A DNA stretch of 64,000 nt from Escherichia coli (lineage in GTDB: Bacteria; Pseudomonadota; Gammaproteobacteria; Enterobacterales; Enterobacteriaceae), in assembly GCF_044324785.1 (NCBI RefSeq), contig NZ_CP172127.1, one strand, 5' to 3'. Positions within the stretch are counted from its first letter, which is position 1. Every line of letters starts with the position of its first letter. Below the pieces are notes generated by a model. It did not search any database, was not told where the DNA came from, and saw nothing but the letters and a program-made list of their open reading frames with translations. Position numbers and translations under genes: made by a program. This document shows positions 11,042 through 39,624 of the stretch, piece after piece.

Positions 11042-11052
11042 TGGTTATTCCC

Positions 11053-12276: not shown

Positions 12277-12291
12277 CTCATTAAACCTGGG

Positions 12292-12624: not shown

Positions 12625-12647
12625 TTATTCTCTCCTGGAGTTAAAAA

Positions 12648-14030: not shown

Positions 14031-14099
14031 AGGCTCATAATTTCTGGTGATTTTATGCCGCCAACTTTACTCGCCAGGCTCTGATTTTCCGGTGACAGG

Positions 14100-14121
14100 A
14101 AAATGACAAAATTGTCATTTT
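14100..14121. promoter_or_regulatory. CusR box (AAAATGACAAAATTGTCATTTT) in the divergent cusC/cusR promoter region
   Basis: Perfect palindrome seen in the 156-bp cusC-cusR intergenic region; matches the known CusR operator as I recall it. Confidence 0.75.
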
Positions 14122-14186
14122 GCCAATAAGCGATTGCCATCTGATCCCGCTACTCTAGAATTGCCCGGGCAACATGCGGAGGAAAT

Positions 14187-18953: not shown

Positions 18954-18980
18954 TTCACTCAGATTAACAGGGAGTATTTT

Positions 18981-19442
18981 ATGCAGTTCACTTTTAATGA
19001 AGGTCATATTCAGCTGCCATCGCAATGGCAGGATCAGTCGATGCAGGTCCTGGTGTCCACAGATAACAGTGGCATCAACCTGGTCATTACCCGCGAACCC
19101 GTTCCACAGGGAACCCTGACACCAGAACTGTACCAGGAAACGCTGGCGCTGTACCAGGGCAAACTTGATGGGTACACCGAACATGCCTGCCGGGAAATCA
19201 CTCTGGCAGAGGCCCCGGCCTGGCTGCTGGATTATTCCTGGAACGGTCCGGAAGATGAAGGGAATCAGGGGCGGATTAGCCAGATAGCCGTATTCCAGCG
19301 GCGTGGAGATACGCTGCTGACCTTCACTTTCAGCACCTCCTTATCCCTGAAGAACAGTCAAAAGACGATGCTGCTGGAGGTGATAAAGAGCTTCACCCCG
19401 TTGCCACCGGAGAATGACATCCAAAAGGACCAGCCGCGCTGA
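18981..19442 (+). CDS. DUF1795-family (EagR-like) effector-associated chaperone
   Basis: 153-aa ORF between vgrG and a prePAAR-containing rhs gene, the canonical position of Eag chaperones; assignment is by size and context. Confidence 0.55.
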   Translation: MQFTFNEGHIQLPSQWQDQSMQVLVSTDNSGINLVITREPVPQGTLTPELYQETLALYQGKLDGYTEHACREITLAEAPAWLLDYSWNGPEDEGNQGRISQIAVFQRRGDTLLTFTFSTSLSLKNSQKTMLLEVIKSFTPLPPENDIQKDQPR

Positions 19443-19461
19443 CATAAACGAGGGATAACAC

Positions 19462-22400
19462 ATGAGTGAAGGACCAGGCGGGCCACAGGGAGCGACCGCA
19501 GGCGGTACGCTGGCAATGCGAATGCTGTCACAGCAGGCGATGGTCGCCAGCCAGATGAAACGGGCAGCCAACGACAAAGCCATTGCACAGATGTTGGCAT
19601 CAAAAAAGTCTGGCCCCCCCGCCGCCAGGCTGGGCGATGAAATTCAGCACAAGAGTTTTTTGGGGGCGCTGGCAGGGGCCGTGCTGGGGGCGATAGTGAC
19701 CATCGCAGAAGGTTGCCTGATTATCGCCGCCTGTGCCACCGGCCCTTATGCGCTGGTTCTGGTGCCTGCGCTGATGTATGCCAGCTATAAGGCGAGTGAT
19801 TATGTGGAGGAGAAACAGAACCAGCTTGAATCCTGGATAAACAGCTTTTGTGACAAGGACGGGGCCATCAATACTGGTTCTAAAAATGTAAACATTAACG
19901 GAAAGCCCGCTGCCAGGGCCGCCGTCACACTTCCCCCTCCTCCCCTGACTGAAGCAATACCCTCTCCACCACAGGGGGAACCTTCATGGGGGGATATTGC
20001 CACTGACCTGCTTGAATCGGCAGCGGAAAAAGCAGTGCCACTGGCGAAGGCCTGGGGGAACGCTGTTATCACCCTGACGGACAGCAATGCCAGTTTTATG
20101 GATCGCTTATGTGCAGGCACATCGCTTCTGTTTCCCTACGGCCCGGTATTAATGGAGTTTGCCACCATGGTGGGCGGGCGTGGCGAAATCAAAAAAGACG
20201 TGGATTTCCCGGAAGCCGGTGAAGACACGGCGCTCTGCGACAAGGAGACTAAACCGCCGAGGATAGCCCAGGGCAGCAGCAACGTCTTCATCAACAATCA
20301 GCCTGCCGCGCGCAAGGGCGACAAACTGGAGTGCAGCGCGGCAATCGTGGAAGGTTCGCCGGACGTCTTTATTGGGGGTGAGCAGGTCACCTATCTGGAT
20401 ATCCAGCCGGAGTTCCCGCCGTGGCAGAGAATGATCCTGGGGGGAATAACGATAGCCAGCTATCTTCTGCCGCCAGCGGGACTGCTGGGAAAAATGAAGA
20501 ATCTGGCGAGACTCGGCAAACTGGGAAACCTGCTGGGGAAAAGCGGGAAGCTGCTGGGCGCAAAACTCGGCGCATTGCTGAGCAGAACAAAAAATGCCCT
20601 GAAAAATACGTATAACGTCCTGAAAAAGTTTATCAAAGATCCGGTTGACCCGGTAACCGGCGCGTACTGCGACGAACGTACCGACTTCACCCTGGGCCAG
20701 ACCCTCCCCCTCTCCTTCACCCGTTTCCACAGTTCTGTACTGCCACTGCATGGCCTGACGGGCGTGGGCTGGAGCGACTCCTGGAGCGAATACGCCTGGG
20801 TGCGTGAACAGGGAAACCGGGTGGATATCATCAGCCAGGGAGCCACGCTGTACTTTGCCTTCGACGGAGACAGTGATACGGCGGTTAACCCGTATCACGC
20901 CCAGTATATCCTGCGCCGCCGCGACGATTACCTGGAGCTGTTCGACCGTGATGCCCTGAGCAGCCGCTTCTTTTATGACGCCTTTCCGGGAATGCGCCTG
21001 CGCCACCAGGTGACCGGCGATACCAATGATGACCGCCTGGCACACAGCCCCGGTGACCGGATGTACATGCTGGGCGGAATGAGTGACACCGCCAGCAACC
21101 GCATCACGTTTGAGCGCGACAGTCAGTACCGGATCACGGGTGTCAGTCACACCGACGGGATCCGGCTTAAACTGACGTACCACGCCAGCGGCTACCTGAA
21201 AGCCATTCACCGCACGGATAACGGCATACAGACGCTGGCGACCTACGAACAGGACGAACGGGGACGGCTGACAGAAGCGGATGCGCGGCTGGACTACCAC
21301 CTGTTTTATGAGTACGACGATGCGGACCGGATCATCCGCTGGTCCGATAACGACCAGACGTGGAGCCGTTTCACCTACGATGCACAGGGCCGGTGCGTGA
21401 CCGTCACCGGGGCGGAAGGCTATTACAACGCCACGCTGGACTATGGTGACGGCTGCACTTCCGTGACGGACGGCAAGGGCATTCACCGTTATTACTATGA
21501 TCCTGACGGCAATATCCTGCGGGAAGACGCGCCGGACGGCAGTACCACCACGTATGAATGGGATGAATTCCATCACCTGCTGGCCCGCCACTCCCCTGCC
21601 GGACGGGTGGAGAAATTTGAATACAACGCCGTACACGGTCAGTTAAGCCGTTACACGGCGGCAGACGGCGCGGTGTGGCAGTACCGCTATGATGAGCGCG
21701 GCCTGCTCAGCAACATCACCGACCCTGCCGGGCAGACGTGGACACAGCAGTGTGATGAACGCGGCCTGCCGGTAAGTCTGGTGTCGCCACAGGGCGAAGA
21801 GACCCGGCTGGCGTACACGCCACAGGGGCTGCTGTCGGGGATATTCCGCCAGGATGAACGGCGTCTGGGCATAGAGTACGACCACCACAACCGGCCGGAA
21901 ACACTCACCGACGTGATGGGCCGTGAACACCACACCGAATACAGCGGTCACGACCTGCCGGTGAAGATGCGCGGCCCCGGCGGTCAGTCAGTGCGGTTAC
22001 AGTGGCAGCAGCACCATAAACTGAGTGGCCTTGAGCGGGCAGGAACCGGCGCGGAAGGATTCCGCTACGACCGCCACGGCAACCTGCTGGCGTACACGGA
22101 CGGTAACGGCGTTGTCTGGACAATGGAATACGGCCCGTTCGATTTGCCGGTGGCGCGAACGGACGGTGAAGGCCACCGCTGGCAGTACCGCTACGATAAA
22201 GACACGCTGCAACTGACAGAAGTCATCAATCCGCAGGGTGAGTCATACCGTTATATTCTCGACAACTGTGGCCGGGTGACGGAAGAGCGTGACTGGGGCG
22301 GCGTGGTCTGGCGTTACCGCTATGACGCCGATGGCCTGTGTACCGCCAGGGTTAACGGCCTGGAGGAAACTATCCTCTACAGCCGGGACGCCGCAGGCCG

Positions 22401-24324
22401 CCTGGCAGAAGTCATCACCCCGGAAGGCAAAACGCAGTATGCGTATGACAAATCCGGCAGGCTGACGGGTATCTTCAGCCCGGACGGCACATCACAGCGC
22501 ACCGGCTACGACGAACGCGGGCGGGTGAATGTCACCACTCAGGGCAGACGGGCCATTGAGTACCACCACCCCGATGAACACACCGTTATCCGCTGTATCC
22601 TGCCACCGGAAGATGAACGCGACAGACACCCCGGTGAATCCCTGCTGAAAACCACCTACCGCTACAACGCCGCCGGAGAACTGACGGAGGTTATCCTGCC
22701 GGGGGATGAGACGCTGACGTTCAGCCGTGATGAGGCAGGACGTGAAGTGCTCCGGCACAGTAACCGGGGTTTTGCCTGTGAACAGGGCTGGAATGCAGCC
22801 GGTCAGCTTACCAGCCAGCGCGCCGGATTTTTCCCGGCGGAAGCCACATGGGGCGGACTGCTCCCCTCACTGGTGCGGGAGTACCGTTACGACAGCGCGG
22901 GCAATGTGTCGGCTGTCACCAGCCGGGAAGACTACGGACGGGAAACACGGCGGGAGTACCGGCTGGACCGGAACGGCCAGGTCACAACGGTGACAGCCTC
23001 AGGCACCGGGCTGGGCTATGGCGAAGGCGACGAGACTTATGGCTATGACAGCTGCGGCTACCTGAAGGCGCAGTCTGCGGGCAGGCACCGGATAAGTGAA
23101 GAGACTGACCAGTATGCCGGAGGCCACCGGCTGAAACAGGCCGGAAACACGCAGTATGACTATGACGCCGCAGGCCGGATGGTCAGCCGCACCAGACACC
23201 GTGACGGCTACCGCCCGGAAACAGAGCGGTTCCGGTGGGACAGCCGGGACCAGCTGACCGGGTATTGCAGCGCACAGGGGGAGCAGTGGGAATACCGCCA
23301 CGACGCCAGCGGCAGGCGGACGGAAAAACGCTGCGACCGGAAGAAAATCCGTTTTACGTACCTGTGGGACGGCGACAATATTGCGGAAATCCGGGAATAC
23401 CGCGATGATAAACTGTACAGCGTACGGCACCTGGTGTTTAACGGCTTTGAGCTGGTAAGCCAGCAGTGCAGCCGGGTACGGCAGGCGCATCCGTCCGTGG
23501 CCCCGCAGTGGGTGACGCGAACGAATTATGCGGTGAGCGACCTGACAGGCCGCCCGCTGATGCTCTTTAACAGTGAAGGTAAAACCGTCTGGCGGCCGGG
23601 ACAGACCAGCCTGTGGGGGCTGGCACTCAGCCTGCCCGCAGACACCGGCTACCCGGACCCGCGCGGGGAACTGGACCCGGAAGCCCCCCCCGGCCTGCTG
23701 TATGCGGGACAGTGGCAGGATACGGAATCGGGGCTGTGCTATAACCGGTTCCGGTATTACGAGCCGGAAACCGGAATGTACCTGGTGAGTGATCCGCTGG
23801 GGTTGCAGGGAGGTGAGCAGACTTACCGGTATGTGCCTAATCCTTGTGGGTATGTTGATCCGCTGGGGCTGGCAAAAACCAGTATTATAAAATCTTCTAC
23901 AGGCAAAATCCCACAAGGGTTAACAAAAAGCGAATTTGAGATTTTTTCAAAAAAATTAAAGGATGTATTAGCCCGAGAGGGAATCTCGACAGAGAATGTG
24001 TTTGTACATGGCAGTAGAGCCAGAGGAGATGCTGTATCAGGTGTTTCAGATATTGATATAAAAGTGATCCTTAGTGATAAAGATTTTGGTGCCTTTGCAG
24101 CAAGACGTATTGCTGAGTCCTCAGGAAGGACTCGAAATTTAATCAGGAAGGCCGTTGCTAAAAATCAAAAAATAAATTCAAGAGGAATTTCTAAAACTTT
24201 TGAATCTACTGTATGGGATGAGGTTTTCACTACCTTACCAAAAGGTGAGTTTTCAAGCATTCAAGTTTCTGTTATGACCAAAACTTCACCATTCAACACT
24301 AATCCGAGTATTATATTACCATGA
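19462..24324 (+). CDS. rhs: Rhs-family polymorphic toxin: prePAAR motif + TM helices + PAAR domain + YD-repeat shell + DPxGL boundary + 150-aa C-terminal nucleotidyltransferase-like toxin domain
   Basis: 1620-aa ORF; N-terminal AARLGDEIQH (AARxxDxxxH prePAAR) then hydrophobic helices; PAAR region GSSNVFINNQPAARKGDKLECSAAIVEGSPDVFIGG; many YD repeats; core ends VSDPLGLQGGEQTYRYVPNPCGYVDPLGL; C-terminal domain is much more AT-rich and contains VHGSRARGDAVSGVSDIDIKV. Confidence 0.9.
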   Translation: MSEGPGGPQGATAGGTLAMRMLSQQAMVASQMKRAANDKAIAQMLASKKSGPPAARLGDEIQHKSFLGALAGAVLGAIVTIAEGCLIIAACATGPYALVLVPALMYASYKASDYVEEKQNQLESWINSFCDKDGAINTGSKNVNINGKPAARAAVTLPPPPLTEAIPSPPQGEPSWGDIATDLLESAAEKAVPLAKAWGNAVITLTDSNASFMDRLCAGTSLLFPYGPVLMEFATMVGGRGEIKKDVDFPEAGEDTALCDKETKPPRIAQGSSNVFINNQPAARKGDKLECSAAIVEGSPDVFIGGEQVTYLDIQPEFPPWQRMILGGITIASYLLPPAGLLGKMKNLARLGKLGNLLGKSGKLLGAKLGALLSRTKNALKNTYNVLKKFIKDPVDPVTGAYCDERTDFTLGQTLPLSFTRFHSSVLPLHGLTGVGWSDSWSEYAWVREQGNRVDIISQGATLYFAFDGDSDTAVNPYHAQYILRRRDDYLELFDRDALSSRFFYDAFPGMRLRHQVTGDTNDDRLAHSPGDRMYMLGGMSDTASNRITFERDSQYRITGVSHTDGIRLKLTYHASGYLKAIHRTDNGIQTLATYEQDERGRLTEADARLDYHLFYEYDDADRIIRWSDNDQTWSRFTYDAQGRCVTVTGAEGYYNATLDYGDGCTSVTDGKGIHRYYYDPDGNILREDAPDGSTTTYEWDEFHHLLARHSPAGRVEKFEYNAVHGQLSRYTAADGAVWQYRYDERGLLSNITDPAGQTWTQQCDERGLPVSLVSPQGEETRLAYTPQGLLSGIFRQDERRLGIEYDHHNRPETLTDVMGREHHTEYSGHDLPVKMRGPGGQSVRLQWQQHHKLSGLERAGTGAEGFRYDRHGNLLAYTDGNGVVWTMEYGPFDLPVARTDGEGHRWQYRYDKDTLQLTEVINPQGESYRYILDNCGRVTEERDWGGVVWRYRYDADGLCTARVNGLEETILYSRDAAGRLAEVITPEGKTQYAYDKSGRLTGIFSPDGTSQRTGYDERGRVNVTTQGRRAIEYHHPDEHTVIRCILPPEDERDRHPGESLLKTTYRYNAAGELTEVILPGDETLTFSRDEAGREVLRHSNRGFACEQGWNAAGQLTSQRAGFFPAEATWGGLLPSLVREYRYDSAGNVSAVTSREDYGRETRREYRLDRNGQVTTVTASGTGLGYGEGDETYGYDSCGYLKAQSAGRHRISEETDQYAGGHRLKQAGNTQYDYDAAGRMVSRTRHRDGYRPETERFRWDSRDQLTGYCSAQGEQWEYRHDASGRRTEKRCDRKKIRFTYLWDGDNIAEIREYRDDKLYSVRHLVFNGFELVSQQCSRVRQAHPSVAPQWVTRTNYAVSDLTGRPLMLFNSEGKTVWRPGQTSLWGLALSLPADTGYPDPRGELDPEAPPGLLYAGQWQDTESGLCYNRFRYYEPETGMYLVSDPLGLQGGEQTYRYVPNPCGYVDPLGLAKTSIIKSSTGKIPQGLTKSEFEIFSKKLKDVLAREGISTENVFVHGSRARGDAVSGVSDIDIKVILSDKDFGAFAARRIAESSGRTRNLIRKAVAKNQKINSRGISKTFESTVWDEVFTTLPKGEFSSIQVSVMTKTSPFNTNPSIILP

Positions 24325-24671
24325 AGAAAAAAGATATTAGATTTGCAATATCCATTAACTCCAACTTAAGTAAGATAGAATTAATGGAAAAAATTAAAAA
24401 TATAATCCCAGGGCTTATTGAAATAACTTCCAGTGCATTAAGAGAAGAAAAAAACATGGTAGTTATTGAAGAAAATGATCTTTATGACCCTATAAAAGCA
24501 GAGGGAGCTGATGGATGGATGTATTATAAATTCATATTATCCATATTCCCATTAAAGGGAGTGGAAACAACATTAGAATATCAACGGGAATTATCTTTTC
24601 TTTTCTTAAAGAAAATAAAAGATGCGGGCCTGTTGGGTGAACTTATATGCGAGGATGATTTTCATGACTGA
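24321..24671 (+). CDS. Putative cognate immunity protein (RhsI) for the Rhs C-terminal toxin
   Basis: 116-aa AT-rich ORF whose ATG overlaps the rhs stop (ATGA); position and composition typical of Rhs immunity genes; no recognisable domain. Confidence 0.6.
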   Translation: MKKKDIRFAISINSNLSKIELMEKIKNIIPGLIEITSSALREEKNMVVIEENDLYDPIKAEGADGWMYYKFILSIFPLKGVETTLEYQRELSFLFLKKIKDAGLLGELICEDDFHD

Positions 24672-24729
24672 TGACCTCTACATATATCCTCAGTTCGTGG
24701 CTGGTATTACATGATCTGACAGGGAAAGA

Positions 24730-24883
24730 TCGTGGCGAAATCAAAAAAGACGTGGATTTCCCGGAAGCCGGTGAGGACACGGCGCTCTGCGACAAGGAGA
24801 ACAAACCACCGAGGATAGCCCAGGGCAGCAGCAACGTCTTCATCAACAATCAGCCTGCCGCACGCAAAGGGGACAAACTGCAG
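24730..24883 (+). pseudogene. Displaced 154-bp fragment of the rhs PAAR-encoding region
   Basis: Near-identical to main rhs 20177-20329 (GEIKKDVDFPEAGEDTALCDKE.KPPRIAQGSSNVFINNQPAARKGDKL); preceded by CAGGGAAAGATC at 24718-24729 and truncated by the IS left end at 24881. Confidence 0.8.
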
Positions 24884-26171
24884 GGAAAGATCACGTAACG
24901 CTGCTTTTTTGTACTAAATAATTCGCATTTTATGTTTAAAAATTGAGATATTCCTCATTACCTAAAGCTGTTTTTTATTGCTTATACATGATCAAATACT
25001 CCTTACATAATTAAGGAGAACAAAATGGAACTTAAAAAATTGATGGAACATATTTCTGTTATCCCCGATTACAGACAAGCATGGAAAGTAGAACATAAAT
25101 TGTCAGATATTCTACTGTTGACTATTTGCGCCGTCATTTGTGGTGCAGAAGGCTGGGAAGATATAGAGGATTTTGGTGAAACACATCTCGATTTTTTGAA
25201 GCAATATGGTGATTTTGAAAATGGTATTCCTGTCCACGATACCATTGCCAGAGTTGTATCCTGTATCAGTCCTGCAAAATTTCACGAGTGCTTTATTAAC
25301 TGGATGCGAGATTGCCATACTTCAGATGATAAAGACGTTATTGCAATCGATGGAAAAACACTCCGGCATTCTTATGACAAGAGTCGCCGCAGGGGAGCGA
25401 TTCATGTCATTAGTGCGTTCTCAACAATGCACAGTCTGGTCATCGGACAGATCAGGACGGATGAGAAATCTAATGAGATTACAGCTATCCCAGAACTTCT
25501 TAACATGCTGGATATTAAAGGAAAAATCATCACAACTGATGCGATGGGTTGCCAGAAAGATATTGCAGAGAAGATACAAAAACAGGGCGGTGATTATTTA
25601 TTCGCTGTAAAAGGAAATCAGGGGCGGCTTAATAAAGCCTTTGAGGAAAAATTCCCACTGAAAGAATTAAATAATCCAGAGCATGATAGTTACGCAATTA
25701 GTGAAAAGAGTCACGGCAGAGAAGAAATCCGACTTCATATTGTTTGCGATGTCCCTGATGAACTTATTGATTTCACGTTTGAATGGAAAGGGCTGAAGAA
25801 ATTATGCATAGCAGTCTCCTTTCGCTCAATAATAGCAGAGCAAAAGAAAGAGCCAGAAATGACGGTCAGATATTATATCAGTTCTGCTGATTTAAACACA
25901 GAAAAGTTCGCCACAGCAATCCGAAACCACTGGCACGTGGAGAATAAGCTGCACTGGCGTCTGGATGTGGTAATGAATGAAGACGACTGCAAAATAAGAA
26001 GAGGAAATGCAGCAGAATTATTTTCAGGGATACGGCACATCGCTATTAATATTTTGACGAATGATAAGGTATTCAAGGCAGGGTTAAGACGTAAGATACG
26101 AAAAGCAGCTATGGACAGAAACTACATGGCGTCAGTCCTTGCGGGGAGCGGGCTTTCGTAATCTTTCCCTG
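24881..26171 (+). mobile_element. ISAs1-family insertion sequence (Rhs H-repeat element), copy 1, ~1.29 kb
   Basis: Terminal inverted repeats CAGGGAAAGAT... (left) and ...ATCTTTCCCTG (right); contains a 378-aa transposase ORF; second copy at 31026-32315. Confidence 0.8.
25025..26161 (+). CDS. ISAs1-family transposase (H-repeat-associated protein, YhhI/YdcC/YbfD-like)
   Basis: 378-aa [40 protein letters not shown]...; recognised as the H-rpt protein family of Rhs elements. Confidence 0.85.
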
Positions 26172-26174
26172 GAC

Positions 26175-26396
26175 ATGACGATTATTGTTCGTTCAAATCC
26201 GAGTAAAGCCGCTATTCTTGAAGAATTTTTACATGGTACACAAGAGAAACTAGGAATAGCTGAAAAATTAGGACGTTATGGACTAGGGAGTGCAGAAACG
26301 CACGTTAAGGATTTCATGATAAGACACAAAAAAATGCTTGGGTTATCTGATGAGGATGTAGCAATACTCAAAATATTGAAAGACAAGGGGTTGTGA
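26175..26396 (+). CDS. Hypothetical small protein (73 aa from MTIIV...); possibly the remnant C-terminus of a toxin domain truncated by the IS
   Basis: ORF 26139..26396 continues in frame across the IS right end; first ATG after the IS at 26175; AT-rich; stop overlaps next ORF start (ATGA). Confidence 0.3.
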   Translation: MTIIVRSNPSKAAILEEFLHGTQEKLGIAEKLGRYGLGSAETHVKDFMIRHKKMLGLSDEDVAILKILKDKGL

Positions 26397-26683
26397 TGAA
26401 TATAATTCTGCCGATAAAAGATATATTTATTATTGCGGGAAACATAGTTTTTAGCGTTTTATACAATGAACATATTGAGTTCCCATGCCGCTGCCAATTA
26501 CTATCTTCAAATTCTGAAGTTATGCAAGAGTTATATATTGAAAAAGAGTTATTTATTAAACGCACTACAGAAAATGATTGTCGTGCTTTAGTGTTAAGAG
26601 GAACATTGGAATACTTATTTGATGAAATTATTGCTGGCGATTGTGCATTGGCCTTATTACAAAAAGAAATAAAAAAAGATTAA
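26393..26683 (+). CDS. Hypothetical AT-rich protein, candidate orphan immunity protein
   Basis: 96-aa ORF translationally coupled to the upstream ORF by ATGA overlap; very AT-rich; no recognisable domain. Confidence 0.35.
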   Translation: MMNIILPIKDIFIIAGNIVFSVLYNEHIEFPCRCQLLSSNSEVMQELYIEKELFIKRTTENDCRALVLRGTLEYLFDEIIAGDCALALLQKEIKKD

Positions 26684-26895
26684 TCCAATATGTAGAACTG
26701 GACAATACCCATCTTTTAACAATGAACTTCGTAATTTTTATCTTAGAAATAATGCTACATTATATGAGGTATATCATGAAGTAATTCATGCCAAGCAATT
26801 TGCGAAAATATTTCTATCGGAGGTGCTGATGCACCATCTAATATGAGACTTATGGATATAATGACACATACAACTCATCATAAATATTACAGGCC

Positions 26896-27264
26896 TTGGG
26901 AATGATAAATAAAATAGTGAAAAAAATGTTGGTTTCATATAGCCCTAAGAAACCGGAGTCTAGGGGCGGGGATTTTGTTATTCCGTTGTTTTTTAATGAG
27001 AAAGTTTCTTTTTTTAGCATAAAAAGTGGCAAGCCAGTGCGATATGGTCTTATGGTATTTACAGGGAAAGTAATTACCATAGATGATATTCTTAGTAAAG
27101 TTCGTTTTCCTGATGTTATGAATGAGCAAAATATTCAACCGTTAATTGACTTTATTAATAACATTAGCGATTTTAAAATAGGGGATGTTATTGAAATTGA
27201 TGATAATGGTAAATTGAAAGTTGTGCCAAAATCAGCAGGACACCCTGTGAGTAAATTGCCATGA
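26896..27264 (+). CDS. Hypothetical AT-rich protein, candidate orphan immunity protein
   Basis: 122-aa ORF immediately upstream of the orphan rhs fragment; AT-rich; no recognisable domain. Confidence 0.35.
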   Translation: MGMINKIVKKMLVSYSPKKPESRGGDFVIPLFFNEKVSFFSIKSGKPVRYGLMVFTGKVITIDDILSKVRFPDVMNEQNIQPLIDFINNISDFKIGDVIEIDDNGKLKVVPKSAGHPVSKLP

Positions 27265-27289
27265 TACTTAAGGGGCCTGATTTTCTGTT

Positions 27290-30051
27290 TTTGCCAGTGG
27301 GACGAATACCATCACCTGCTGGCGAGGCTGTCTCCGGCAGGACGGCTGGAAAAGTTTGACTATCATCTGACACTCGGTCAGTTAAGCCGTTACACGGCGG
27401 CAGACGGCGCGGAGTGGCAGTACCGCTATGATGAGCGCGGCCTGCTCAGCAACATCACCGACCCTGCCGGGCAGACGTGGACACAGCAGTGCGATGAACG
27501 CGGCCTGCCGGTGAGTCTGGTGTCGCCACAGGGCGAAGAGACCCGGCTGGCGTACACCGCTCAGGGGCTGCTGTCGGGGATATTCCGCCAGGATGAACGG
27601 CGTCTGGGCATAGAGTACGACCACCACAACCGGCCGGAAACACTCACCGACGTGATGGGCCGTGAACACCACACCGAATACAGCGGTCACGACCTGCCGG
27701 TGAAGATGCGCGGCCCCGGCGGTCAGTCAGTGCGCTTACAGTGGCAGCAGCACCATAAACTGAGCGGCATTGAACGTGCTGGAACCGGCGCGGAAGGATT
27801 TCGCTATGACCGCCACGGCAACCTGCTGGCCTGGACGGACGGCAACGGTGTTGACTGGACAATGGAATACGGCCCGTTTGATTTGCCGGTGGCGCGAACG
27901 GACGGTGAAGGCCACCGCTGGCAGTACCGCTACGATAAAGACACGCTGCAACTGACAGAAGTCATCAATCCGCAGGGCGAGTCATACCGTTATATTCTCG
28001 ACAACTGTGGGCGGGTGACGGAAGAGCATGACTGGGGCGGCGTGGTCTGGCGTTACCGCTATGACGCCGATGGTCTGTGTACCGCCAGGGTTAACGGCCT
28101 GGAGGAAACCATCCTCTACAGCCGGGACGCCGCAGGCCGCCTGGCAGAAGTCATCACCCCGGAAGGGAAAACGCAGTATGCGTATGACAAATCCGGCAGG
28201 CTGACGGGTATCTTCAGCCCGGACGGCACATCACAGCGCACCGGCTACGACGAACGCGGGCGGGTGAATGTCACCACTCAGGGCCGACGGGCCATTGAAT
28301 ACCACCACCCCGATGAACACACCGTCATCCGCTGTATCCTGCCACCGGAAGATGAACGCGACAGACACCCCGGTGAATCCCTGCTGAAAACCACCTACCG
28401 CTACAACGCCGCCGGAGAACTGACGGAGGTTATCCTGCCGGGGGATGAGACGCTGACGTTCAGCCGTGATGAGGCAGGACGTGAAGTGCTCCGGCACAGT
28501 AACCGGGGTTTTGCCTGTGAACAGGGCTGGAATGCAGCCGGTCAGCTTACCAGCCAGCGCGCCGGATTTTTCCCGGCGGAAGCCACATGGGGCGGACTGC
28601 TCCCCTCACTGGTGCGGGAGTACCGTTACGACAGCGCGGGCAATGTGTCGGCTGTCACCAGCCGGGAAGACTACGGACGGGAAACACGGCGGGAGTACCG
28701 GCTGGACCGGAACGGCCAGGTCACAACGGTGACAGCCTCAGGCACCGGGCTGGGCTATGGCGAAGGCGACGAGACTTATGGCTATGACAGCTGCGGCTAC
28801 CTGAAGGCGCAGTCTGCGGGCAGGCACCGGATAAGTGAAGAGACTGACCAGTATGCCGGAGGCCACCGGCTGAAACAGGCCGGAAACACGCAGTATGACT
28901 ATGACGCCGCAGGCCGGATGGTCAGCCGCACCAGACACCGTGACGGCTACCGCCCGGAAACAGAGCGGTTCCGGTGGGACAGCCGGGACCAGCTGACCGG
29001 GTATTGCAGCGCACAGGGGGAGCAGTGGGAATACCGCCACGACGCCAGCGGCAGGCGGACGGAAAAACGCTGCGACCGGAAGAAAATCCGTTTTACGTAC
29101 CTGTGGGACGGCGACAATATTGCGGAAATCCGGGAATACCGCGATGATAAACTGTACAGCGTACGGCACCTGGTGTTTAACGGCTTTGAGCTGGTAAGCC
29201 AGCAGTGCAGCCGGGTACGGCAGGCGCATCCGTCCGTGGCCCCGCAGTGGGTGACGCGAACGAATTATGCGGTGAGCGACCTGACAGGCCGCCCGCTGAT
29301 GCTCTTTAACAGTGAAGGTAAAACCGTCTGGCGGCCGGGACAGACCAGCCTGTGGGGGCTGGCACTCAGCCTGCCCGCAGACACCGACTACCCGGACCCG
29401 CGCGGGGAGCTGGACCCGGAAGCCGACCCCGGCCTGCTGTATGCAGGACAGTGGCAGGATACGGAATCAGGGCTGTGCTATAACCGGTTCCGGTACTACG
29501 AGCCGGAAACCGGAATGTACCTGGTGAGTGATCCGCTGGGGTTGCAGGGGGGTGAGCAGACTTACCGGTATGTGCCGAATCCTTTAAGATATAAAGATTT
29601 CTATGGGCTTAGTAAGAGTTCAATAATAACGAGAGGAAAGAATGCTGGTCATGGCTATGCAGCCAGCGTTACACCTGGAGGCAAAGGTACGGTGTTGGCT
29701 GGTCACGGAGGATCAAAATTTGGCGATAAAATGATTATACCAGAAGGCGTATCGATAACGATGCCGAGAGATGGTATTAAAATATCAGATATGACTGGAA
29801 AATTACTGGAATCTGGTAATGTGGATGATATAATTAAAGCTGCAAGTAATAATCCTCGTGTAGCTAGCGATCTTGAAGGTTGGGTTACTTATTTGCCCGG
29901 CACTGAAATCCCTGATTATATTTTAAAACCACCCACCAATCTTAACATACTGGAAAATTCAGTAACGGTGAACACTTCAACTTATTTATCTCAAATGGTA
30001 AATGCTGGTCAAGGTAATGTAATCTGGGCTGCATGCACCGAATTTTTTTAA
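27290..30051 (+). pseudogene. rhs: Orphan rhs module: 3' part of the rhs core (no in-frame start; reading frame opens at 27255) fused to an alternative ~155-aa C-terminal toxin domain
   Basis: Homology to main rhs begins ~27290 (main 21565) and is near-identical from 27385; frame has a stop at 27252-27254 and no ATG until 27511; core ends ...DPLGLQGGEQTYRYVPNP then diverges (LRYKDFYGLSKSSIITRGKNAGHGYAAS...). Confidence 0.8.
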
Positions 30052-30065
30052 CGCGGGGTAATCGT

Positions 30066-30548
30066 ATGTATTTTAAAGATGATACTGACTATACATATTT
30101 CCTTCCTAATGAATATTTTTTACACGGGGTGAAAAATGTGGGCTGGATAGACAGAGAACACCCCTTCACAAAAGGGATTAGTGACGCTGAATTTATTGAA
30201 AAGTTAAAAGCAATAATTCTAACAGAGAATGAAGCAACTTGTTTTTCAGTTAATAAAATAAGAGGATTTCACAAATGTAATTTTTGCAATAGTGAAATGA
30301 TAACAATAACCGATGGAAGAAAAAAAGGATACCTTGGCATGAGTGAAATATGGATTCCATCCATCCACCATAATGAGTATTACGCGTTTCCTTCATTAAT
30401 TTTCCATTATATAACATCTCACATGTATAGACCACCAGAGGACTTTATTGTATCTGTTTTAAACTTGAATTTAAGCGAGAGTTTTTGCGCTCAAAACATA
30501 TATGACAATAAAATTAAGGAATTAAAAATAGACTTCTGGTTTCGTTAA
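30066..30548 (+). CDS. Putative immunity protein for the orphan Rhs C-terminal domain
   Basis: ATG at 30066, 15 bp after the orphan rhs stop; 160 aa, AT-rich, contains CNFCN and His-rich segment; no recognisable domain. Confidence 0.5.
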   Translation: MYFKDDTDYTYFLPNEYFLHGVKNVGWIDREHPFTKGISDAEFIEKLKAIILTENEATCFSVNKIRGFHKCNFCNSEMITITDGRKKGYLGMSEIWIPSIHHNEYYAFPSLIFHYITSHMYRPPEDFIVSVLNLNLSESFCAQNIYDNKIKELKIDFWFR

Positions 30549-30567
30549 AGCTGGTAATTTAACTTAT

Positions 30568-30660
30568 CGGGAATACCGCTATGATGGCAGTTTCAGACGG
30601 ACGGAGAAATGCTGTCAGCAAAAAGACTTCCGCTTCGCGTATCTGTGGGGCATGGGGATA
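30568..30660 (+). pseudogene. Short fragment of a divergent rhs core 3' region
   Basis: Translates to EYRYDGSFRRTEKCCQQKDFRFAYLWG, resembling but not identical to the resident core EYRHDASGRRTEKRCDRKKIRFTYLWDG. Confidence 0.5.
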
Positions 30661-30726
30661 ATTTATCTTCATCAATTGATATATTGATTAATGGCAAGGA
30701 GGCCATTGAAATTCCGTAAGGCCAAC

Positions 30727-30912
30727 TTGATATGACGCCTGGCACACAGCCCCGGTGACCGGATGTATATGCTGGGCGGGATGAGCGACACCGCCAGCAA
30801 CCGCATCACGTTTGAGCGCGACAGCCAGTACCGGATCACGGGTGTCAGTCACACCGACGGGATCCGGCTTAAACTGACGTACCACGCCAGCGGCTACCTG
30901 AAAGCCATTCAC
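30727..30912 (+). pseudogene. Rhs core fragment (copy of main rhs ~21040-21225) truncated by an IS left end
   Basis: Encodes RLAHSPGDRMYMLGGMSDTASNRITFERDSQYRITGVSHTDGIRLKLTYHASGYLKAIHR, near-identical to the main rhs; followed by CAGGGAAAGATCACG at 30915. Confidence 0.8.
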
Positions 30913-30914
30913 CG

Positions 30915-31025
30915 CAGGGAAAGATCACGTAACGCTGCTTTTTTGTACTAAGCAATTCGCATTTTATGTTCAGTATTTGAGATACTCCTTATAACACAAA
31001 CCTGTTTTTCATAGCTTATATATGT
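30915..31025 (+). repeat. Partial duplicate of the ISAs1 left end (~110 bp) upstream of the complete copy 2
   Basis: CAGGGAAAGATCACGTAACGCTGCTTTTTTGTACTAA... matches the IS left end, then a second left end begins at 31026. Confidence 0.7.
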
Positions 31026-32315
31026 AGGAAAAGATCACGTAACGCTCCTTTTTTGTACTAAATAATTCGCATTTTATGTTTAAAAATTGAGATATTCCTC
31101 ATTACCTAAAGCTGTTTTTTATTGCTTACACATGATCAAATACTCCTTACATAATTAAGGATAACAAAATGTAACTTAAAAAATTGATGGAACATATTTC
31201 TATTATCCCCGATTACAGACAAGCCTGGAAAGTGGAACATAAATTATCGGATATTCTACTGTTGACTATTTGTGCCGTTATTTCGGGTGCAGAAGGTTGG
31301 GAAGATATAGAGGATTTTGGGGAAACACATCTCGATTTTTTAAAACAATATGGTGATTTTGAAAATGGTATTCCTGTTCACGATACCATTGCCAGAGTTG
31401 TATCCTGTATCAGCCCTGCAAAATTTCACGAGTGCTTTATTAACTGGATGCGAGATTGCCATACTTCAGATGATAAAGACGTCATCGCAATTGATGGAAA
31501 AACACTCCGGCATTCTTATGGCAAGAGTCGCCGCAGGGGAGCGATTCATGTCATTAGTGCGTTCTCAACAATGCACAGTCTGGTCATCGGACAGATCAGG
31601 ACGGATGAGAAATCCAATGAAATTACAGCTATCCCTGAACTTCTTAACATGCTGGATATTAAAGGAAAAATCATCACAACTGATGCAATGGGTTGCCAGA
31701 AAGATATTGCAGAGAAGATACAAAAACAGGGCGGTGATTATTTATTCGCTGTAAAAGGAAATCAGGGGCGGCTTAATAAAGCCTTTGAGGAAAAATTTCC
31801 ACTGAAAGAATTAAATAATCCAGAGCATGACAGTTACGCCATTAGTGAAAAGAGTCACGACAGAGAAGAAATCCGTCTTCATATTGTTTGCGATGTCCCT
31901 GATGAACTTATTGATTTCACGTTTGAATGGAAAGGACTGAAGAAATTATGCGTGGCAGTCTCCTTTCGGTCAATAATAGCAGAACAAAAGAAAGAGCCAG
32001 AAATGACGGTCAGATATTATATCAGTTCTGCTGATTTAACCGCAGAGAAGTTCGCCACAGCAATCCGAAACCACTGGCACGTGGAGAATAAGCTGCACTG
32101 GCGTCTGGACGTGGTAATGAATGAAGACGACTGCAAAATAAGAAGAGGAAATGCAGCAGAATTATTTTCAGGGATACGGCACATCGCTATTAATATTTTG
32201 ACGAATGATAAGGTATTCAAGGCAGGGTTAAGACGTAAGATGCGAAAAGCAGCCATGGACAGAAACTATCTCGCGTCAGTCCTTGCTGGGAGCGGGCTTT
32301 CGTAATCTTTCCCTG
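31026..32315 (+). mobile_element. ISAs1-family insertion sequence (H-repeat element), copy 2, direct orientation relative to copy 1
   Basis: Same terminal sequences as copy 1 (left GGAAAAGATCACG, right ATCTTTCCCTG); transposase ORF inside. Confidence 0.8.
31187..32305 (+). CDS. ISAs1-family transposase (H-repeat protein), copy 2
   Basis: 372 aa from ATG 31187; the upstream ATG of copy 1 is followed here by TAA (ATGTAA), so this copy starts at the internal Met; a few substitutions relative to copy 1. Confidence 0.8.
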
Positions 32316-32502
32316 CGTTAACCGCCCCTCCTTGACACCACGCTTTTGTCTACATTCTACGCAAACGGCAACTTTTATAACCAGTGTAAAAATAACGTGC
32401 CGCAATAGTCATACCTATTAATGGTAAAAAGCTGTCACAATTCATAAAAAACCTTAATATACGCCACCCTAAACATAACCAGCGTTAATGTAAGGTTTTT
32501 GT

Positions 32503-34740
32503 GTGGACTGGCTTCTTGATGTTTTTGCTACCTGGCTCTACGGCTTAAAAGTAATCGCGATAACGTTAGCGGTCATCATGTTCATCAGCGGGCTGGACGA
32601 TTTTTTTATTGATGTCGTCTACTGGGTACGCCGCATTAAACGCAAGTTGAGTGTTTATCGCCGCTACCCGCGAATGAGTTACCGCGAACTGTATAAACCA
32701 GATGAAAAACCGTTAGCGATTATGGTTCCGGCGTGGAATGAAACGGGCGTCATCGGCAATATGGCCGAGCTGGCGGCGACCACGCTCGACTATGAAAACT
32801 ATCATATCTTTGTTGGCACCTACCCCAACGACCCCGATACTCAGCGTGATGTTGACGAAGTGTGCGCTCGCTTCCCAAACGTGCATAAGGTAGTCTGCGC
32901 GCGTCCTGGCCCCACCAGCAAAGCCGACTGCCTGAACAACGTGCTGGACGCCATCACCCAGTTTGAGCGTAGCGCCAATTTCGCTTTCGCTGGTTTTATT
33001 CTGCATGACGCCGAAGACGTAATTTCACCGATGGAATTGCGTTTGTTCAACTATCTGGTCGAGCGTAAAGATCTGATTCAGATCCCGGTATACCCATTCG
33101 AACGCGAATGGACGCACTTCACCAGCATGACTTACATTGATGAGTTTTCAGAACTGCATGGCAAAGATGTTCCGGTGCGTGAAGCCCTCGCCGGACAGGT
33201 GCCCAGCGCAGGCGTCGGCACCTGTTTCAGCCGCCGCGCCGTGACCGCACTGTTAGCTGACGGTGACGGTATTGCTTTCGACGTGCAGAGTCTTACTGAA
33301 GATTACGACATTGGTTTCCGCCTGAAAGAAAAAGGTATGACGGAAATTTTTGTCCGTTTTCCGGTGGTGGACGAAGCCAAAGAACGCGAGCAGCGTAAAT
33401 TTTTACAGCACGCGCGGACGTCAAACATGATCTGCGTGCGCGAATATTTCCCTGATACCTTTTCGACTGCGGTTCGACAAAAATCTCGCTGGATCATCGG
33501 CATTGTTTTCCAGGGCTTTAAAACCCATAAATGGACCTCCAGCCTGACGCTGAACTACTTTCTCTGGCGCGACCGCAAAGGGGCAATCAGTAACTTTGTC
33601 AGCTTCCTCGCGATGCTGGTGATGATCCAGCTTTTGCTGTTACTGGCGTATGAAAGTTTGTGGCCCGATGCCTGGCATTTCCTTTCTATTTTCAGCGGCA
33701 GCGCATGGTTAATGACCCTGCTGTGGCTAAACTTTGGTTTGATGGTTAACCGCATCGTGCAGCGGGTGATTTTTGTCACTGGCTACTACGGTCTGACGCA
33801 GGGGCTGCTATCTGTCCTGCGTCTTTTCTGGGGCAACCTGATTAACTTCATGGCCAACTGGCGCGCGTTAAAACAGGTACTTCAACACGGCGATCCACGT
33901 CGCGTCGCGTGGGATAAAACAACGCATGACTTCCCCAGCGTGACTGGCGATACCCGCTCGTTGCGCCCGTTAGGCCAAATTCTGCTGGAAAATCAGGTCA
34001 TCACTGAAGAACAACTCGATACAGCACTGCGTAATCGCGTCGAAGGTCTACGCCTGGGCGGTTCAATGCTGATGCAGGGGCTGATTAGCGCCGAACAGCT
34101 GGCACAGGCGCTGGCAGAGCAAAACGGCGTGGCGTGGGAGTCGATCGACGCCTGGCAGATCCCTTCATCACTGATTGCCGAAATGCCGGCCTCCGTGGCG
34201 CTGCATTATGCAGTGCTGCCGCTGCGTCTGGAAAATGATGAGTTAATTGTCGGCAGTGAAGATGGTATTGACCCGGTTTCGCTGGCGGCCCTGACGCGTA
34301 AAGTCGGACGCAAAGTGCGTTACGTCATTGTTCTGCGCGGACAAATTGTCACGGGGTTACGTCACTGGTATGCACGCCGACGCGGTCACGATCCGCGGGC
34401 AATGTTGTACAATGCGGTTCAGCATCAGTGGCTCACGGAACAGCAGGCCGGTGAAATCTGGCGGCAATATGTGCCGCATCAGTTCCTGTTCGCCGAAATA
34501 CTGACCACGCTCGGTCATATTAATCGTTCAGCAATTAACGTGTTGTTATTGCGCCATGAACGCAGTTCTCTGCCGCTCGGCAAGTTTTTGGTCACCGAAG
34601 GCGTTATCAGCCAGGAAACGTTGGATCGCGTCCTGACAATTCAACGCGAATTACAAGTTTCGATGCAATCACTATTACTCAAAGCAGGTTTAAACACAGA
34701 ACAGGTTGCGCAACTGGAGTCCGAAAATGAAGGAGAATAA
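32503..34740 (+). CDS. nfrB: Bacteriophage N4 adsorption protein B (inner-membrane glycosyltransferase family 2, c-di-GMP binding)
   Basis: 745-aa ORF beginning at GTG 32503 (MDWLLDVFATWLYGLKV...); recognised as NfrB. Confidence 0.85.
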   Translation: MDWLLDVFATWLYGLKVIAITLAVIMFISGLDDFFIDVVYWVRRIKRKLSVYRRYPRMSYRELYKPDEKPLAIMVPAWNETGVIGNMAELAATTLDYENYHIFVGTYPNDPDTQRDVDEVCARFPNVHKVVCARPGPTSKADCLNNVLDAITQFERSANFAFAGFILHDAEDVISPMELRLFNYLVERKDLIQIPVYPFEREWTHFTSMTYIDEFSELHGKDVPVREALAGQVPSAGVGTCFSRRAVTALLADGDGIAFDVQSLTEDYDIGFRLKEKGMTEIFVRFPVVDEAKEREQRKFLQHARTSNMICVREYFPDTFSTAVRQKSRWIIGIVFQGFKTHKWTSSLTLNYFLWRDRKGAISNFVSFLAMLVMIQLLLLLAYESLWPDAWHFLSIFSGSAWLMTLLWLNFGLMVNRIVQRVIFVTGYYGLTQGLLSVLRLFWGNLINFMANWRALKQVLQHGDPRRVAWDKTTHDFPSVTGDTRSLRPLGQILLENQVITEEQLDTALRNRVEGLRLGGSMLMQGLISAEQLAQALAEQNGVAWESIDAWQIPSSLIAEMPASVALHYAVLPLRLENDELIVGSEDGIDPVSLAALTRKVGRKVRYVIVLRGQIVTGLRHWYARRRGHDPRAMLYNAVQHQWLTEQQAGEIWRQYVPHQFLFAEILTTLGHINRSAINVLLLRHERSSLPLGKFLVTEGVISQETLDRVLTIQRELQVSMQSLLLKAGLNTEQVAQLESENEGE

Positions 34741-37699: not shown

Positions 37700-38590
37700 A
37701 TGCGTAAGTTCATTTTCGTATTGCTGACACTGCTTTTGGTCAGCCCTTTTTCCTTTGCGATGAAAGGTATTATCTGGCAACCACAAAACCGTGATAGTCA
37801 GGTTACCGATACCCAGTGGCAGGGGCTGATGAGTCAGTTACGTTTGCAAGGCTTCGATACCCTGGTTTTGCAATGGACCCGTTACGGCGATGCATTCACC
37901 CAGCCAGAACAGCGCGCGTTATTGTTTAAGCGTGCCGCAGCTGCGCAACAGGCTGGCCTGAAGCTGATTGTCGGGCTGAACGCCGATCCGGAATTTTTTA
38001 TACACCAGAAACAGTCATCCGCGGCGCTGGAAAGCTATCTTAATCGCCTGCTGGCTGCCGATCTCCAGCAAGCCAGATTATGGAGCGCCGCGCCTGGCGT
38101 AACGCCGGATGGCTGGTACATCAGCGCGGAAATTGACGACCTGAACTGGCGTAGCGAAGCCGCCCGTCAGCCTTTGCTAACATGGTTAAACAACGCGCAG
38201 CGGCTGATTAGCGATGTTTCAGCAAAACCGGTTTATATCAGTAGTTTTTTCGCCGGAAACATGTCGCCCGATGGCTATCGCCAACTGCTGGAACACGTTA
38301 AAGCAACCGGCGTTAATGTCTGGGTACAGGATGGCAGCGGCGTGGATAAACTTACTGCTGAACAGCGTGAACGTTATCTACAGGCCAGCGCCGATTGCCA
38401 AAGCTCCGCCCCAGCAAGCGGCATTGTTTATGAACTGTTTGTCGCCGGCAAAGGCAAAACCTTTACAGCGAAACCGAAACCGGATGCAGAGATCGCCTCG
38501 CTGTTAGCGAAACGTTCCTCTTGCGGTAAAGACACGCTCTATTTCTCTCTGCGCTATTTGCCCGTCGCACACGGCATTCTCGAGTATTAA
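37700..38590 (+). CDS. ybcH: Conserved secreted protein YbcH (DUF4434)
   Basis: 296-aa ORF with signal peptide, starts one base after the nfrA stop; K-12 order nfrA-ybcH-envY. Confidence 0.75.
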   Translation: MRKFIFVLLTLLLVSPFSFAMKGIIWQPQNRDSQVTDTQWQGLMSQLRLQGFDTLVLQWTRYGDAFTQPEQRALLFKRAAAAQQAGLKLIVGLNADPEFFIHQKQSSAALESYLNRLLAADLQQARLWSAAPGVTPDGWYISAEIDDLNWRSEAARQPLLTWLNNAQRLISDVSAKPVYISSFFAGNMSPDGYRQLLEHVKATGVNVWVQDGSGVDKLTAEQRERYLQASADCQSSAPASGIVYELFVAGKGKTFTAKPKPDAEIASLLAKRSSCGKDTLYFSLRYLPVAHGILEY

Positions 38591-38600
38591 ATCCCTTCCA

Positions 38601-38627
38601 GGTAAGTCGGGTACGACCTGACTTACC
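38601..38627 (+). terminator. Hairpin GGTAAGTCGGGT-ACG-ACCTGACTTACC downstream of ybcH
   Basis: Inverted repeat seen 10 nt after the ybcH stop; weak U-tract. Confidence 0.35.
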
Positions 38628-38772
38628 ACTTTCGCTCTCGTCAGAATTCCATCAAGATTAATTGCTAAAAAGCATGCTAAAGAAAGAAGATCGTTATCGG
38701 CGAACGGGCCGATCACTCATGCAGGAAGCATAGATCCTTTGAGCGGAGTTTCTGATATCTGAGGAGTGCGAA

Positions 38773-39534: not shown

Positions 39535-39579
39535 AGGGCAAAGCGGAAACGGATAAGACGGGCATAAATGAAGAAGAAA

Positions 39580-39624
39580 TGGCGCGCCCTGCAGGATTCG
39601 AACCTGCGGCCCACGACTTAGAAG
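39580..39624 (-). tRNA. argU: 3'-terminal 45 nt of tRNA-Arg(UCU) argU (anticodon loop through CCA): prophage attachment-site remnant (attR-like), not a complete tRNA
   Basis: Reverse complement reads CTTCTAAGTCGTGGGCCGCAGGTTCGAATCCTGCAGGGCGCGCCA, matching the 3' part of argU as I recall it; upstream sequence does not continue the tRNA. Confidence 0.7.

Follow-up and report, generated by a model that had tools for sequence, protein, structure and literature searches.

Two insertion sequence (IS) copies of the ISAs1 family lie in direct orientation within the window, the 64,000-nt stretch of Escherichia coli DNA (contig NZ_CP172127.1) that we analyzed, and between them is a series of orphan rhs toxin/immunity remnants. 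We read this region, with a probability of about 0.78, as the distal half of a known Rhs effector island, in which displaced orphan modules have accumulated with two independent, long-diverged IS elements amid them. The original prediction, made from the sequence alone, had proposed that fragments of the resident main rhs gene were left beside the IS copies by repeated IS-mediated or homologous rearrangement, and that the pair could delete or mobilize the segment between them.

The island is the vgrG/PAAR-Rhs island of E. coli found between cusS and nfrB. It occupies ~16270–32360 of the window, with limits set by strain PAR, where cusS and nfrB are adjacent and the island is absent. We identified the locus through the annotation of strain N3 (NZ_CP031609) and its collinearity with the window over positions 11178–39624 (28.4 kb), the empty site in PAR, and published catalogues. 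Jackson et al. 2009 (PMC2935791) call the site Rhs locus 4, nfrB-cusS; for E. coli W it is listed under region b0570-b0569 (rhsW3), in a paper that also gives the cusS-nfrB site as empty in K-12 (PMC3032704). The order in the window is vgrG, a DcrB-related adaptor gene, the main PAAR-Rhs gene, a small overlapping open reading frame (ORF), the IS/orphan region, and nfrB, which starts at 32503. Gene annotations were partly carried over from the collinear N3 RefSeq record by a constant offset, and the searches of complete genomes covered 5426 of them. An IS adjoins nfrB in 2481 of these (46%), including O157:H7 and O26:H11; the window's module order together with the second IS (copy 1) occurs in one other complete genome only, N3.

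The two IS copies are as follows.

24881–26171, plus strand: ISAs1-family copy 1 (H-repeat [H-rpt]/ISEc1-like), 1291 bp, with an intact 378-aa transposase at 25025–26161 and no target-site duplication.
31025–32315, plus strand: ISAs1-family copy 2, 1291 bp, decayed, with C1T and G5A in the left terminus, a stop at codon 2, and private D118G and G231D changes.

Both copies gave full-length matches to the ISAs1 transposase model NF033564 (profile 1–314 of 314; E 4.8e-125 for copy 1 and, from Met7, 1.3e-123 for copy 2) and aligned without gaps, confirming that two direct, same-strand ISAs1/H-repeat copies are present as predicted. RefSeq lists the corresponding N3 transposases under the names "ISAs1 family" and "ISAs1-like element ISEc1 family". 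The terminal inverted repeats match at 11 of 12 positions (left, CAGGGAAAGATC; right, read on the other strand, CAGGGAAAGATT), and a length of ~1.2–1.3 kb with CAGGG-type terminal inverted repeats places the copies in the ISAs1 family. The predicted limits of copy 1 held, whereas copy 2 starts at 31025 and not 31026. Likewise, the two copies had been given the same ends, which is correct for the right ends and for a 110-nt IS stub in front of copy 2, but the left terminus of copy 2 itself is TAGGAAAAGATC, two substitutions away from CAGGGAAAGATC.

Pairwise alignment of the copies, a check that the prediction had put forward, pointed to old divergence. There were 49 mismatches in 1291 positions and no indels (96.2% identity), with a synonymous divergence (dS) of 0.15 and a nonsynonymous-to-synonymous ratio (dN/dS) of 0.08, and these values indicate that the copies diverged as functional elements long before they became neighbors. 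Neither copy, on this comparison, was made from the other at this locus; both are old, independent elements. Codon 2 is intact in copy 1 (ATGGAA) and a stop in copy 2 (ATGTAA, E2*), as had been noticed earlier. Among 10 copies compared, eight of them from the same locus in other strains, E2*, D118G, and G231D were found in copy 2 alone, and by its sequence copy 2 today is a probable relic. It is also a mosaic: over the first 100 nt it is similar to copy 1 (3 differences), and from there on it is closer to the nfrB-proximal IS of strain AR_0067. Copy 1 retains its ORF and both termini. Its only match at ≥99% is in N3, at the same site, and the next best reached 97.8%; intact in transposase and ends, copy 1 shows no sign of recent movement. 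The dN/dS of the transposase ranged from 0.04 to 0.5 and was mostly <0.25, even at the fixed nfrB-adjacent site, low values that argue for a transposase kept under purifying selection. The literature reports no observed case of H-rpt transposition (PMC3032704), and a mobilome preprint did not detect ISAs1 circles in K-12.

The left end of each IS copy abuts remnants of other rhs and IS elements.

24720–24731, plus strand: 12-nt ISAs1 left-terminus remnant, an exact 12/12 match to CAGGGAAAGATC, joined to rhs nucleotide 718.
24731–24880, plus strand: PAAR-region stub, 150 nt, the 5′ end of a former N-truncated orphan rhs; it corresponds to 20179–20328 of the window (143/150, 95.3%).
30736–30914, plus strand: rhs core stub, 179 nt, the 5′ end of another former orphan rhs; it corresponds to 21034–21212 (175/179, 97.8%).
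30915–31024, plus strand: left-end stub of a third, divergent ISAs1 element, 110 nt, with an intact CAGGGAAAGATC terminus; it is 76–86% identical to nine other sampled IS left ends, the AR_0067 stub among them.

The 12-nt terminus in front of the PAAR fragment had been predicted, at 24718–24729 rather than its actual 24720–24731. It is not a chance match, since CAGGGAAAGATC with ≤1 mismatch occurs six times in the window against 0.25 expected, five of the six being at IS termini or the two stubs. The core fragment is likewise present, with limits of 30736–30914 in place of the predicted 30727–30912. The expected partial left end of ~110 bp before copy 2 was confirmed at 30915–31024; its identity is 86% with copy 1 and 83% with copy 2. 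We considered whether this stub is a leftover of the common nfrB-proximal IS and rejected that origin, as it is only 76–85% identical to the nfrB-proximal left ends sampled.

The rhs fragments at the IS left ends do resemble the main rhs, but their predicted origin from the resident gene did not survive comparison with other strains. Against the resident main rhs, the PAAR stub has 7/150 mismatches and the core stub 4/179; against the rhs genes of other strains, the counts are 4–5/150 and 2–3/179, respectively. Because these other genes match as well or better, the stubs are not recent pieces of the resident rhs. Their left junctions can also be followed through other lineages. The 12-mer/rhs junction is conserved in AR_0067, 90-9280, and GB089. 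The immunity gene, 12-mer, and PAAR junction are shared by 110 genomes; in these the PAAR piece extends over 300 nt, up to an IS left-end stub of 86–87 nt (300 nt in AR_0067, L006 10092–10391), and a chimeric query comprising the end of the immunity gene, the 12-mer, and continuing rhs matched in one piece in at least 17 genomes among the matches listed. Strains 90-9280 and GB089 have the identical 12-nt junction followed by an N-truncated rhs with ~3.7 kb of homology to the main gene (annotated as pseudogenes of 3.8–4.1 kb), which has its own toxin and immunity gene. The core stub occurs with the same left junction and context in O26:H11 (L008 9049–9380), where it is ~330 nt long and ends at a full IS. 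As these junctions recur in other lineages with longer fragments, they predate the window lineage. Each rhs fragment was in this way shown to correspond to the 5′ stub of an older N-truncated orphan rhs that is longer or intact elsewhere. Relative to the 90-9280 arrangement, copy 1 stands in place of ~11.5 kb, and positions 26172–26784 of the window are 99% identical to the 90-9280 sequence just past that gap. We also note that both rhs stubs are ~150 nt shorter than their counterparts (150 versus 300 nt and 179 versus ~330 nt), a similar step that may be coincidence.

A reference for simple insertion comes from strain ET490 (L002 5752–7042), in which an ISEc1 lies in the main rhs, in rhs orientation, with a perfect 10-bp duplication (GCTGCTCCCC) and the gene continuing after it; this insertion shows that the ISEc1 family has transposed into rhs. 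No target-site duplication was found in the window at copy 1, at copy 2, or around the 110-nt stub and copy 2 taken jointly. The left ends of both copies adjoin rhs stub-type remnants, and the right ends adjoin unrelated DNA: a small orphan ORF minus its first 36 nt for copy 1, and the nfrB upstream region for copy 2. Given rhs stubs on the left, unrelated DNA on the right, and no duplication, we take these junctions to be products of secondary rearrangement. The absent duplication is a sign of that, and not of non-membership in the ISAs1 family. Crossovers within IS elements are visible elsewhere at the locus, as the nfrB-proximal IS of O26:H11 (L008 9380–10670) differs from the L005 copy (10860–12150) at 29 positions in the first 200 nt and at 3 in the remaining 1091, and this confinement of most differences to the first 200 nt shows a crossover inside the O26:H11 IS, a clear chimera.

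The right-hand boundary of the island differs from that of most genomes.

32316–32360, plus strand: closing 45 nt of the island, next to the core-genome sequence upstream of nfrB; in most genomes 67–70 extra nt follow the IS.

This spacer of 67–70 nt (CCTGCTCACCTCC...CACTATGA) lies between the IS right end and CGTTAACC (L003 12151–12218, L005 12151–12221). In a 30-row spread sample, every full-length nfrB-IS junction match had it except N3, and it is missing from the window (32315/32316), N3, and AR_0067, owing either to an IS-adjacent deletion or to a separate insertion. Across ten genomes at this locus, we counted at least 8 distinct positions at which rhs meets an IS left end, always in rhs orientation. 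Collectively, a past in which IS-associated deletion and rearrangement shaped the locus is well supported. The predicted history of repeated IS-mediated or homologous rearrangement therefore holds for the past, given the missing duplications, the rhs/IS junctions, and the chimeric IS copies, but not as a recent process, given the dS of 0.15 between the copies.

For the sequence of events, we propose that an ISAs1 element would have inserted into an older N-truncated orphan rhs, and that the DNA between the inserted IS and a downstream IS copy or target would then have been lost, through homologous recombination between IS copies or through transposase-mediated adjacent deletion. What remained would be an rhs stub and an IS next to unrelated DNA, and a target-site duplication would be missing. 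Copy 1 would mark the loss of ~11.5 kb from a 90-9280-like arrangement, while the 110-nt stub and copy 2 are most simply read as an IS lying within another, nested at nucleotide 110, with later recombination that involved the resident nfrB-proximal IS.

Several points weigh against this account. No genome was found in which an IS sits at rhs position 20328 or 21212 while the rest of the rhs is still present downstream, so insertion followed by deletion is inferred rather than observed. At the window's own junctions, recombination between IS copies and transposase-mediated adjacent deletion look the same, and the 12-nt terminus could be a tandem-duplication joint or a deletion inside an older IS. 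The architecture is represented by two genomes, the window and N3, which leaves "no structural variation" almost without statistical power. Finally, whole modules could have come ready-made through horizontal transfer and homologous recombination; flanking recombination does occur here, as the window and N3 are identical from ~23000 rightwards and 1–3% diverged leftwards.

We then weighed other explanations for these junctions. The transposase itself may have made them, by intramolecular transposition with adjacent deletion from one IS end rather than by RecA-dependent exchange between IS copies, and we regard this as possible but doubtful. It would account for the absence, in the window, N3, and AR_0067, of the 67–70 nt that adjoin the nfrB-proximal IS on its right side at every other full-length junction sampled, and for two stubs that are each ~150 nt shorter than their counterparts with an IS left end at the new boundary; adjacent deletions also leave no duplication, which matches the window. 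However, the shorter and longer junctions carry different IS types (the AR_0067 IS stub is 93% identical to copy 1, and the O26:H11 IS left end is 83% identical to the 110-nt stub), so the sliding of one element is not shown, and the mosaic IS copies indicate homologous crossovers within IS. The transposition chemistry of ISAs1 is, to our knowledge, uncharacterized, which further weakens this explanation. An unlikely alternative is that the IS copies are passive passengers and that shuffling was due to rhs-core recombination ("C-terminal displacement"), module import, and occasional illegitimate deletion. Gene conversion between main and orphan cores is demonstrated in the window lineage, the window and N3 differ by a recombination block that ends inside the rhs core, orphan modules are shared and re-ordered among lineages, and the C-terminal displacement model is published (PMC2935791). 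What passive carriage cannot explain is that both stub breakpoints coincide to the nucleotide with IS termini, that at least 6 other junctions of rhs with an IS left end occur at this locus in nine other genomes, or that chimeric IS copies exist.

The most dynamic explanation, that the fragments were recently cut from the resident rhs and that the IS pair deletes the 4.85-kb block or moves it as a composite transposon, strikes us as very improbable. The 378-aa transposase and termini of copy 1 are intact, as are the outer ends of the pair (24881 and 32315); as the copies lie in direct repeat, a crossover between the two would remove 6144 bp; and the ET490 insertion with its 10-bp duplication shows that the family has transposed into rhs. 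Set against this, the rhs of other strains matches the fragments at least as closely as the resident rhs does, the junctions of the fragments are common to distant lineages, the copies differ at 49 positions (dS 0.15), and in copy 2 the left terminus is mutated and codon 2 is a stop. Although the outer ends are intact, there is no duplication around the composite, and the unit is found only at this site, in the window and in the identical arrangement of N3. The predicted deletion product (PAAR stub, IS, nfrB) occurred in none of the 5426 genomes, where junction searches could have detected such an arrangement, and the same genomes yielded neither an IS-bracketed unit at another site nor a transposed derivative, nor any near-identical second copy of copy 1. 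The lack of any observed H-rpt transposition (PMC3032704) also counts against it. With copy 2 decayed, no derivative in the genomes searched, and copy 1 without near-identical copies, current mobility of the segment is not supported. The original prediction had named relic copies with no structural variation among isolates as the result that would count against it; on the two genomes available, the window and N3, the mobile reading fails.

We also compared the repeats available for present-day exchange. The longer is shared by the main and orphan rhs genes.

22588–23647, plus strand, equal to 28327–29386: perfect direct repeat of 1060 bp between main and orphan rhs, measured as the length of the identical run.

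At all 43 of the 43 sites where the orphan rhs of the window differs from that of N3, the window carries the main-gene allele. Gene conversion from main to orphan gene, specific to this lineage, therefore produced the 1060-bp repeat. The window and N3 are otherwise identical over ~23000–39600 and diverge by 1–3% to the left (12000–23000: the cus operon, vgrG, and 5′ rhs), and because divergence stops near 23000, a recombination breakpoint lies inside the rhs core. With 1060 bp of perfect identity against a longest identical run of 131 bp between the IS copies, the rhs repeats offer more scope for deletion than the IS copies do. The next rearrangement is thus most likely to be a RecA-mediated crossover that joins the main rhs core to the orphan one, rather than one IS copy to the other. 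Such main-by-orphan recombination has been demonstrated experimentally in Salmonella (PMC3967940); at this locus we detected no deletion of this kind, gene conversion alone being seen. The resulting fusion would switch the delivered toxin to the Stv-like domain of the orphan gene, deleting the current toxin/immunity pair and IS copy 1. In practical terms, a main-by-orphan rhs fusion is likelier than IS-mediated excision in this strain.

The proximal half of the island holds vgrG, the adaptor gene, the main rhs, and a putative immunity gene.

17016–18953, plus strand: vgrG, type VI secretion system (T6SS) spike and first gene of the island; an ORF annotated as VgrG in N3.
18981–19442, plus strand: DcrB-related (Eag-type) adaptor gene; an ORF supported by N3 annotation, with no NCBIfam match.
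19462–24324, plus strand: main PAAR-Rhs effector gene, whose product of 1620 aa ends in a nucleotidyltransferase-like domain; identified by profile matches.
24321–24671, plus strand: putative cognate immunity gene, 116 aa; an ORF overlapping the rhs stop, hypothetical in N3, with no family match.

The main Rhs matched YD repeats (TIGR01643, E 3e-71) and the Rhs-associated core (TIGR03696, E 1e-18). Its PAAR match scored 42 bits (E 7e-11), under the curated cut-off of 124, and its C-terminus matched the nucleotidyltransferase fold PF01909 (E 3.5e-6). A YD-repeat shell and an Rhs core with the PxxxxDPxGL region, followed by a variable toxin domain, is the layout of a PAAR-Rhs effector. No T6SS core genes were found within the window. 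No small ORF matched any NCBIfam family, and immunity roles here were assigned by position alone.

The segment between the IS copies is 4853 bp long (26172–31024) and consists of orphan toxin/immunity remnants, confirming the predicted segment of ~4.85 kb.

26172–26396, plus strand: 3′ part of a small orphan ORF (WP_000889443-like) missing its first 36 nt; 99.6% matches in many genomes begin exactly at 26172.
26393–26683, plus strand: small ORF, 96 aa, WP_001021473-like, a putative immunity gene; an ORF also in N3, with no family match.
26712–27264, plus strand: zincin-like toxin fragment (26712–26810) and the next small ORF (26902–27264); transferred N3 annotation and ORF.
27265–30051, plus strand: orphan rhs with a Stv-like C-terminal domain, lacking an N-terminus and start signals; matches to YD repeats, Rhs_assc_core, and PF21527.
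30033–30548, plus strand: putative orphan immunity gene, a 171-aa ORF; N3 annotates 30066–30548 (WP_224482396), with no family match.
30560–30735, plus strand: junk, made up of a short 3′ piece of rhs core and the tail of a SUKH-3 immunity gene; from similarity to O26:H11.

In E. coli C the WP_000889443-like ORF is intact, its start lying 36 nt further upstream, and in ET490 this protein is likewise annotated as intact. The orphan rhs is homologous to the main gene from ~21559 by blastn, with weaker homology from near 27265, and the two cores are 97.4% identical across 2289 nt. Its C-terminal domain (PF21527, E 1.7e-12) is distinct from that of the main gene. N-truncated, with a shared core, a distinct C-terminus, and a small downstream ORF as putative immunity gene, it has the make-up of an orphan rhs cassette. 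Window positions 30640–30920 are 95% identical to the end of the SUKH-3 gene and the rhs fragment in O26:H11, and orphan modules generally are shared and re-ordered between lineages. A scan of 24300–32600 returned 18 promoter-like sites against 16.6 expected and found no plus-strand terminators in this interval; with a promoter count near expectation and no such terminators, there is no evidence for or against IS read-through driving the orphan immunity genes.

H-repeat/ISEc1 elements in Rhs elements, with partial tandem copies, adjacent core fragments, and orphan tips, have long been described by the Hill laboratory (1993–94). Partial tandem H-rpt copies in K-12 RhsC were reportedly described by Zhao et al. 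in 1993 (J Bacteriol 175:2799) and by Hill et al. in 1994 (Mol Microbiol 12:865). Later accounts of H-repeat and orphan-tip features (PMC3032704, PMC2935791) also make the window locus one of an already known kind. Like the H-rpt/ISEc1 elements of E. coli Rhs elements, the window copies are 1291 bp long with a single 378-aa transposase ORF and CAGGG... inverted repeats, and their position is likewise distal in an Rhs element, with core fragments around them. Unlike typical H-rpt/ISEc1, copy 1 is a private allele (97.8% best match outside N3), copy 2 has inactivating changes, and the locus is empty in K-12. The island shares its site and the series vgrG, DcrB-related gene, rhs, immunity, orphan tips, IS, and nfrB with Rhs locus 4 (PMC2935791; rhsW3, PMC3032704), but its exact module order with copy 1 is found besides only in N3. 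The window resembles Salmonella Typhimurium (Koskiniemi et al. 2014, PMC3967940) in that an N-truncated orphan rhs, equipped with a toxin and immunity gene of its own (putative here), lies downstream of a main rhs. There, deletion through the shared core can join the main gene to the orphan toxin, and the window shares 1060 identical bp; in contrast to Salmonella, an IS, a PAAR stub, and two further remnants separate main and orphan genes in the window. An ISAs1-family element or remnant also sits exactly at a junction of unrelated DNA in the Salmonella group D2 O-antigen cluster, where the H-repeat remnant was taken as the agent of rearrangement (PMC3715488). The D2 event concerned a different locus and gene content, and joined two gene clusters rather than trimming an array. 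The window serves as a worked example of trimming and reshuffling within the orphan toxin/immunity arrays of Rhs islands, and as a caution that IS-flanked stubs should not be taken for recent events.

We also surveyed other insertion sites of this IS. Scanning species-representative genomes for the left terminus yielded 23 unique flanks on that side, most of them in other Escherichia species or in E. coli-like contigs of metagenome bins. Between 2 and 4 of the 23 abut rhs coding sequence, two confirmed through BLAST to annotated genomes and two being sub-threshold YD-repeat matches. Against the Rhs of this clade, the left flanks gave nothing by blastn or default tblastn, and relaxed tblastn, translation, and a YD-repeat hidden Markov model gave sub-threshold matches only (E 0.01–0.09); an enrichment of rhs among the left flanks is suggestive only. 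IS fragments abut or lie just upstream of at least 3 of the 23 left ends, and up to 6 when nearby fragments are counted. Examples are a 381-nt IS stub directly before the new left end in L037 (1681–2097), a ~35-nt stub near the new left terminus in L013 (~4585–4656), a 78-nt stub in L025 lying ~175 nt before the left end at position 2496, and IS nucleotides 1095–1210 before the new left terminus in L031. Since partial fragments precede left ends in other Escherichia-type contigs, the stub-plus-IS layout of the window is a recurring pattern for this IS, and the survey fits the old association of H-rpt with Rhs. The at least 8 junctions in ten genomes, the flanks elsewhere that abut rhs or IS, and purifying selection at a fixed site also raise the thought, which we consider unlikely, that ISAs1/H-rpt has an insertion or retention bias for rhs coding sequence (in rhs orientation) and for its own copies, and is the main device by which orphan arrays are pruned.

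Some further features were observed outside the IS/orphan region. The record NZ_CM135829.1 (L005; 4.83 Mb), labelled DH5alpha, carries the cusS-nfrB Rhs island, and as K-12 is without this island (PMC3032704), the label may be wrong. Collinearity with N3 stops at 39624, within the N3 tRNA-Arg gene between envY and fimZ; ARAGORN found no tRNA in the window. From ~39624 to 64000 there are lambdoid prophage genes (tail fiber and assembly, J-like central tail fiber, tape measure, major head, and protease/portal), and the break in collinearity followed by phage genes indicates a prophage, missing from N3, that integrated at the tRNA-Arg site. Near the other end of the window, 1186–2157 comprises a ~500-bp tandem duplication, 97–98% identical, which corresponds to two hokE toxin genes annotated in N3.

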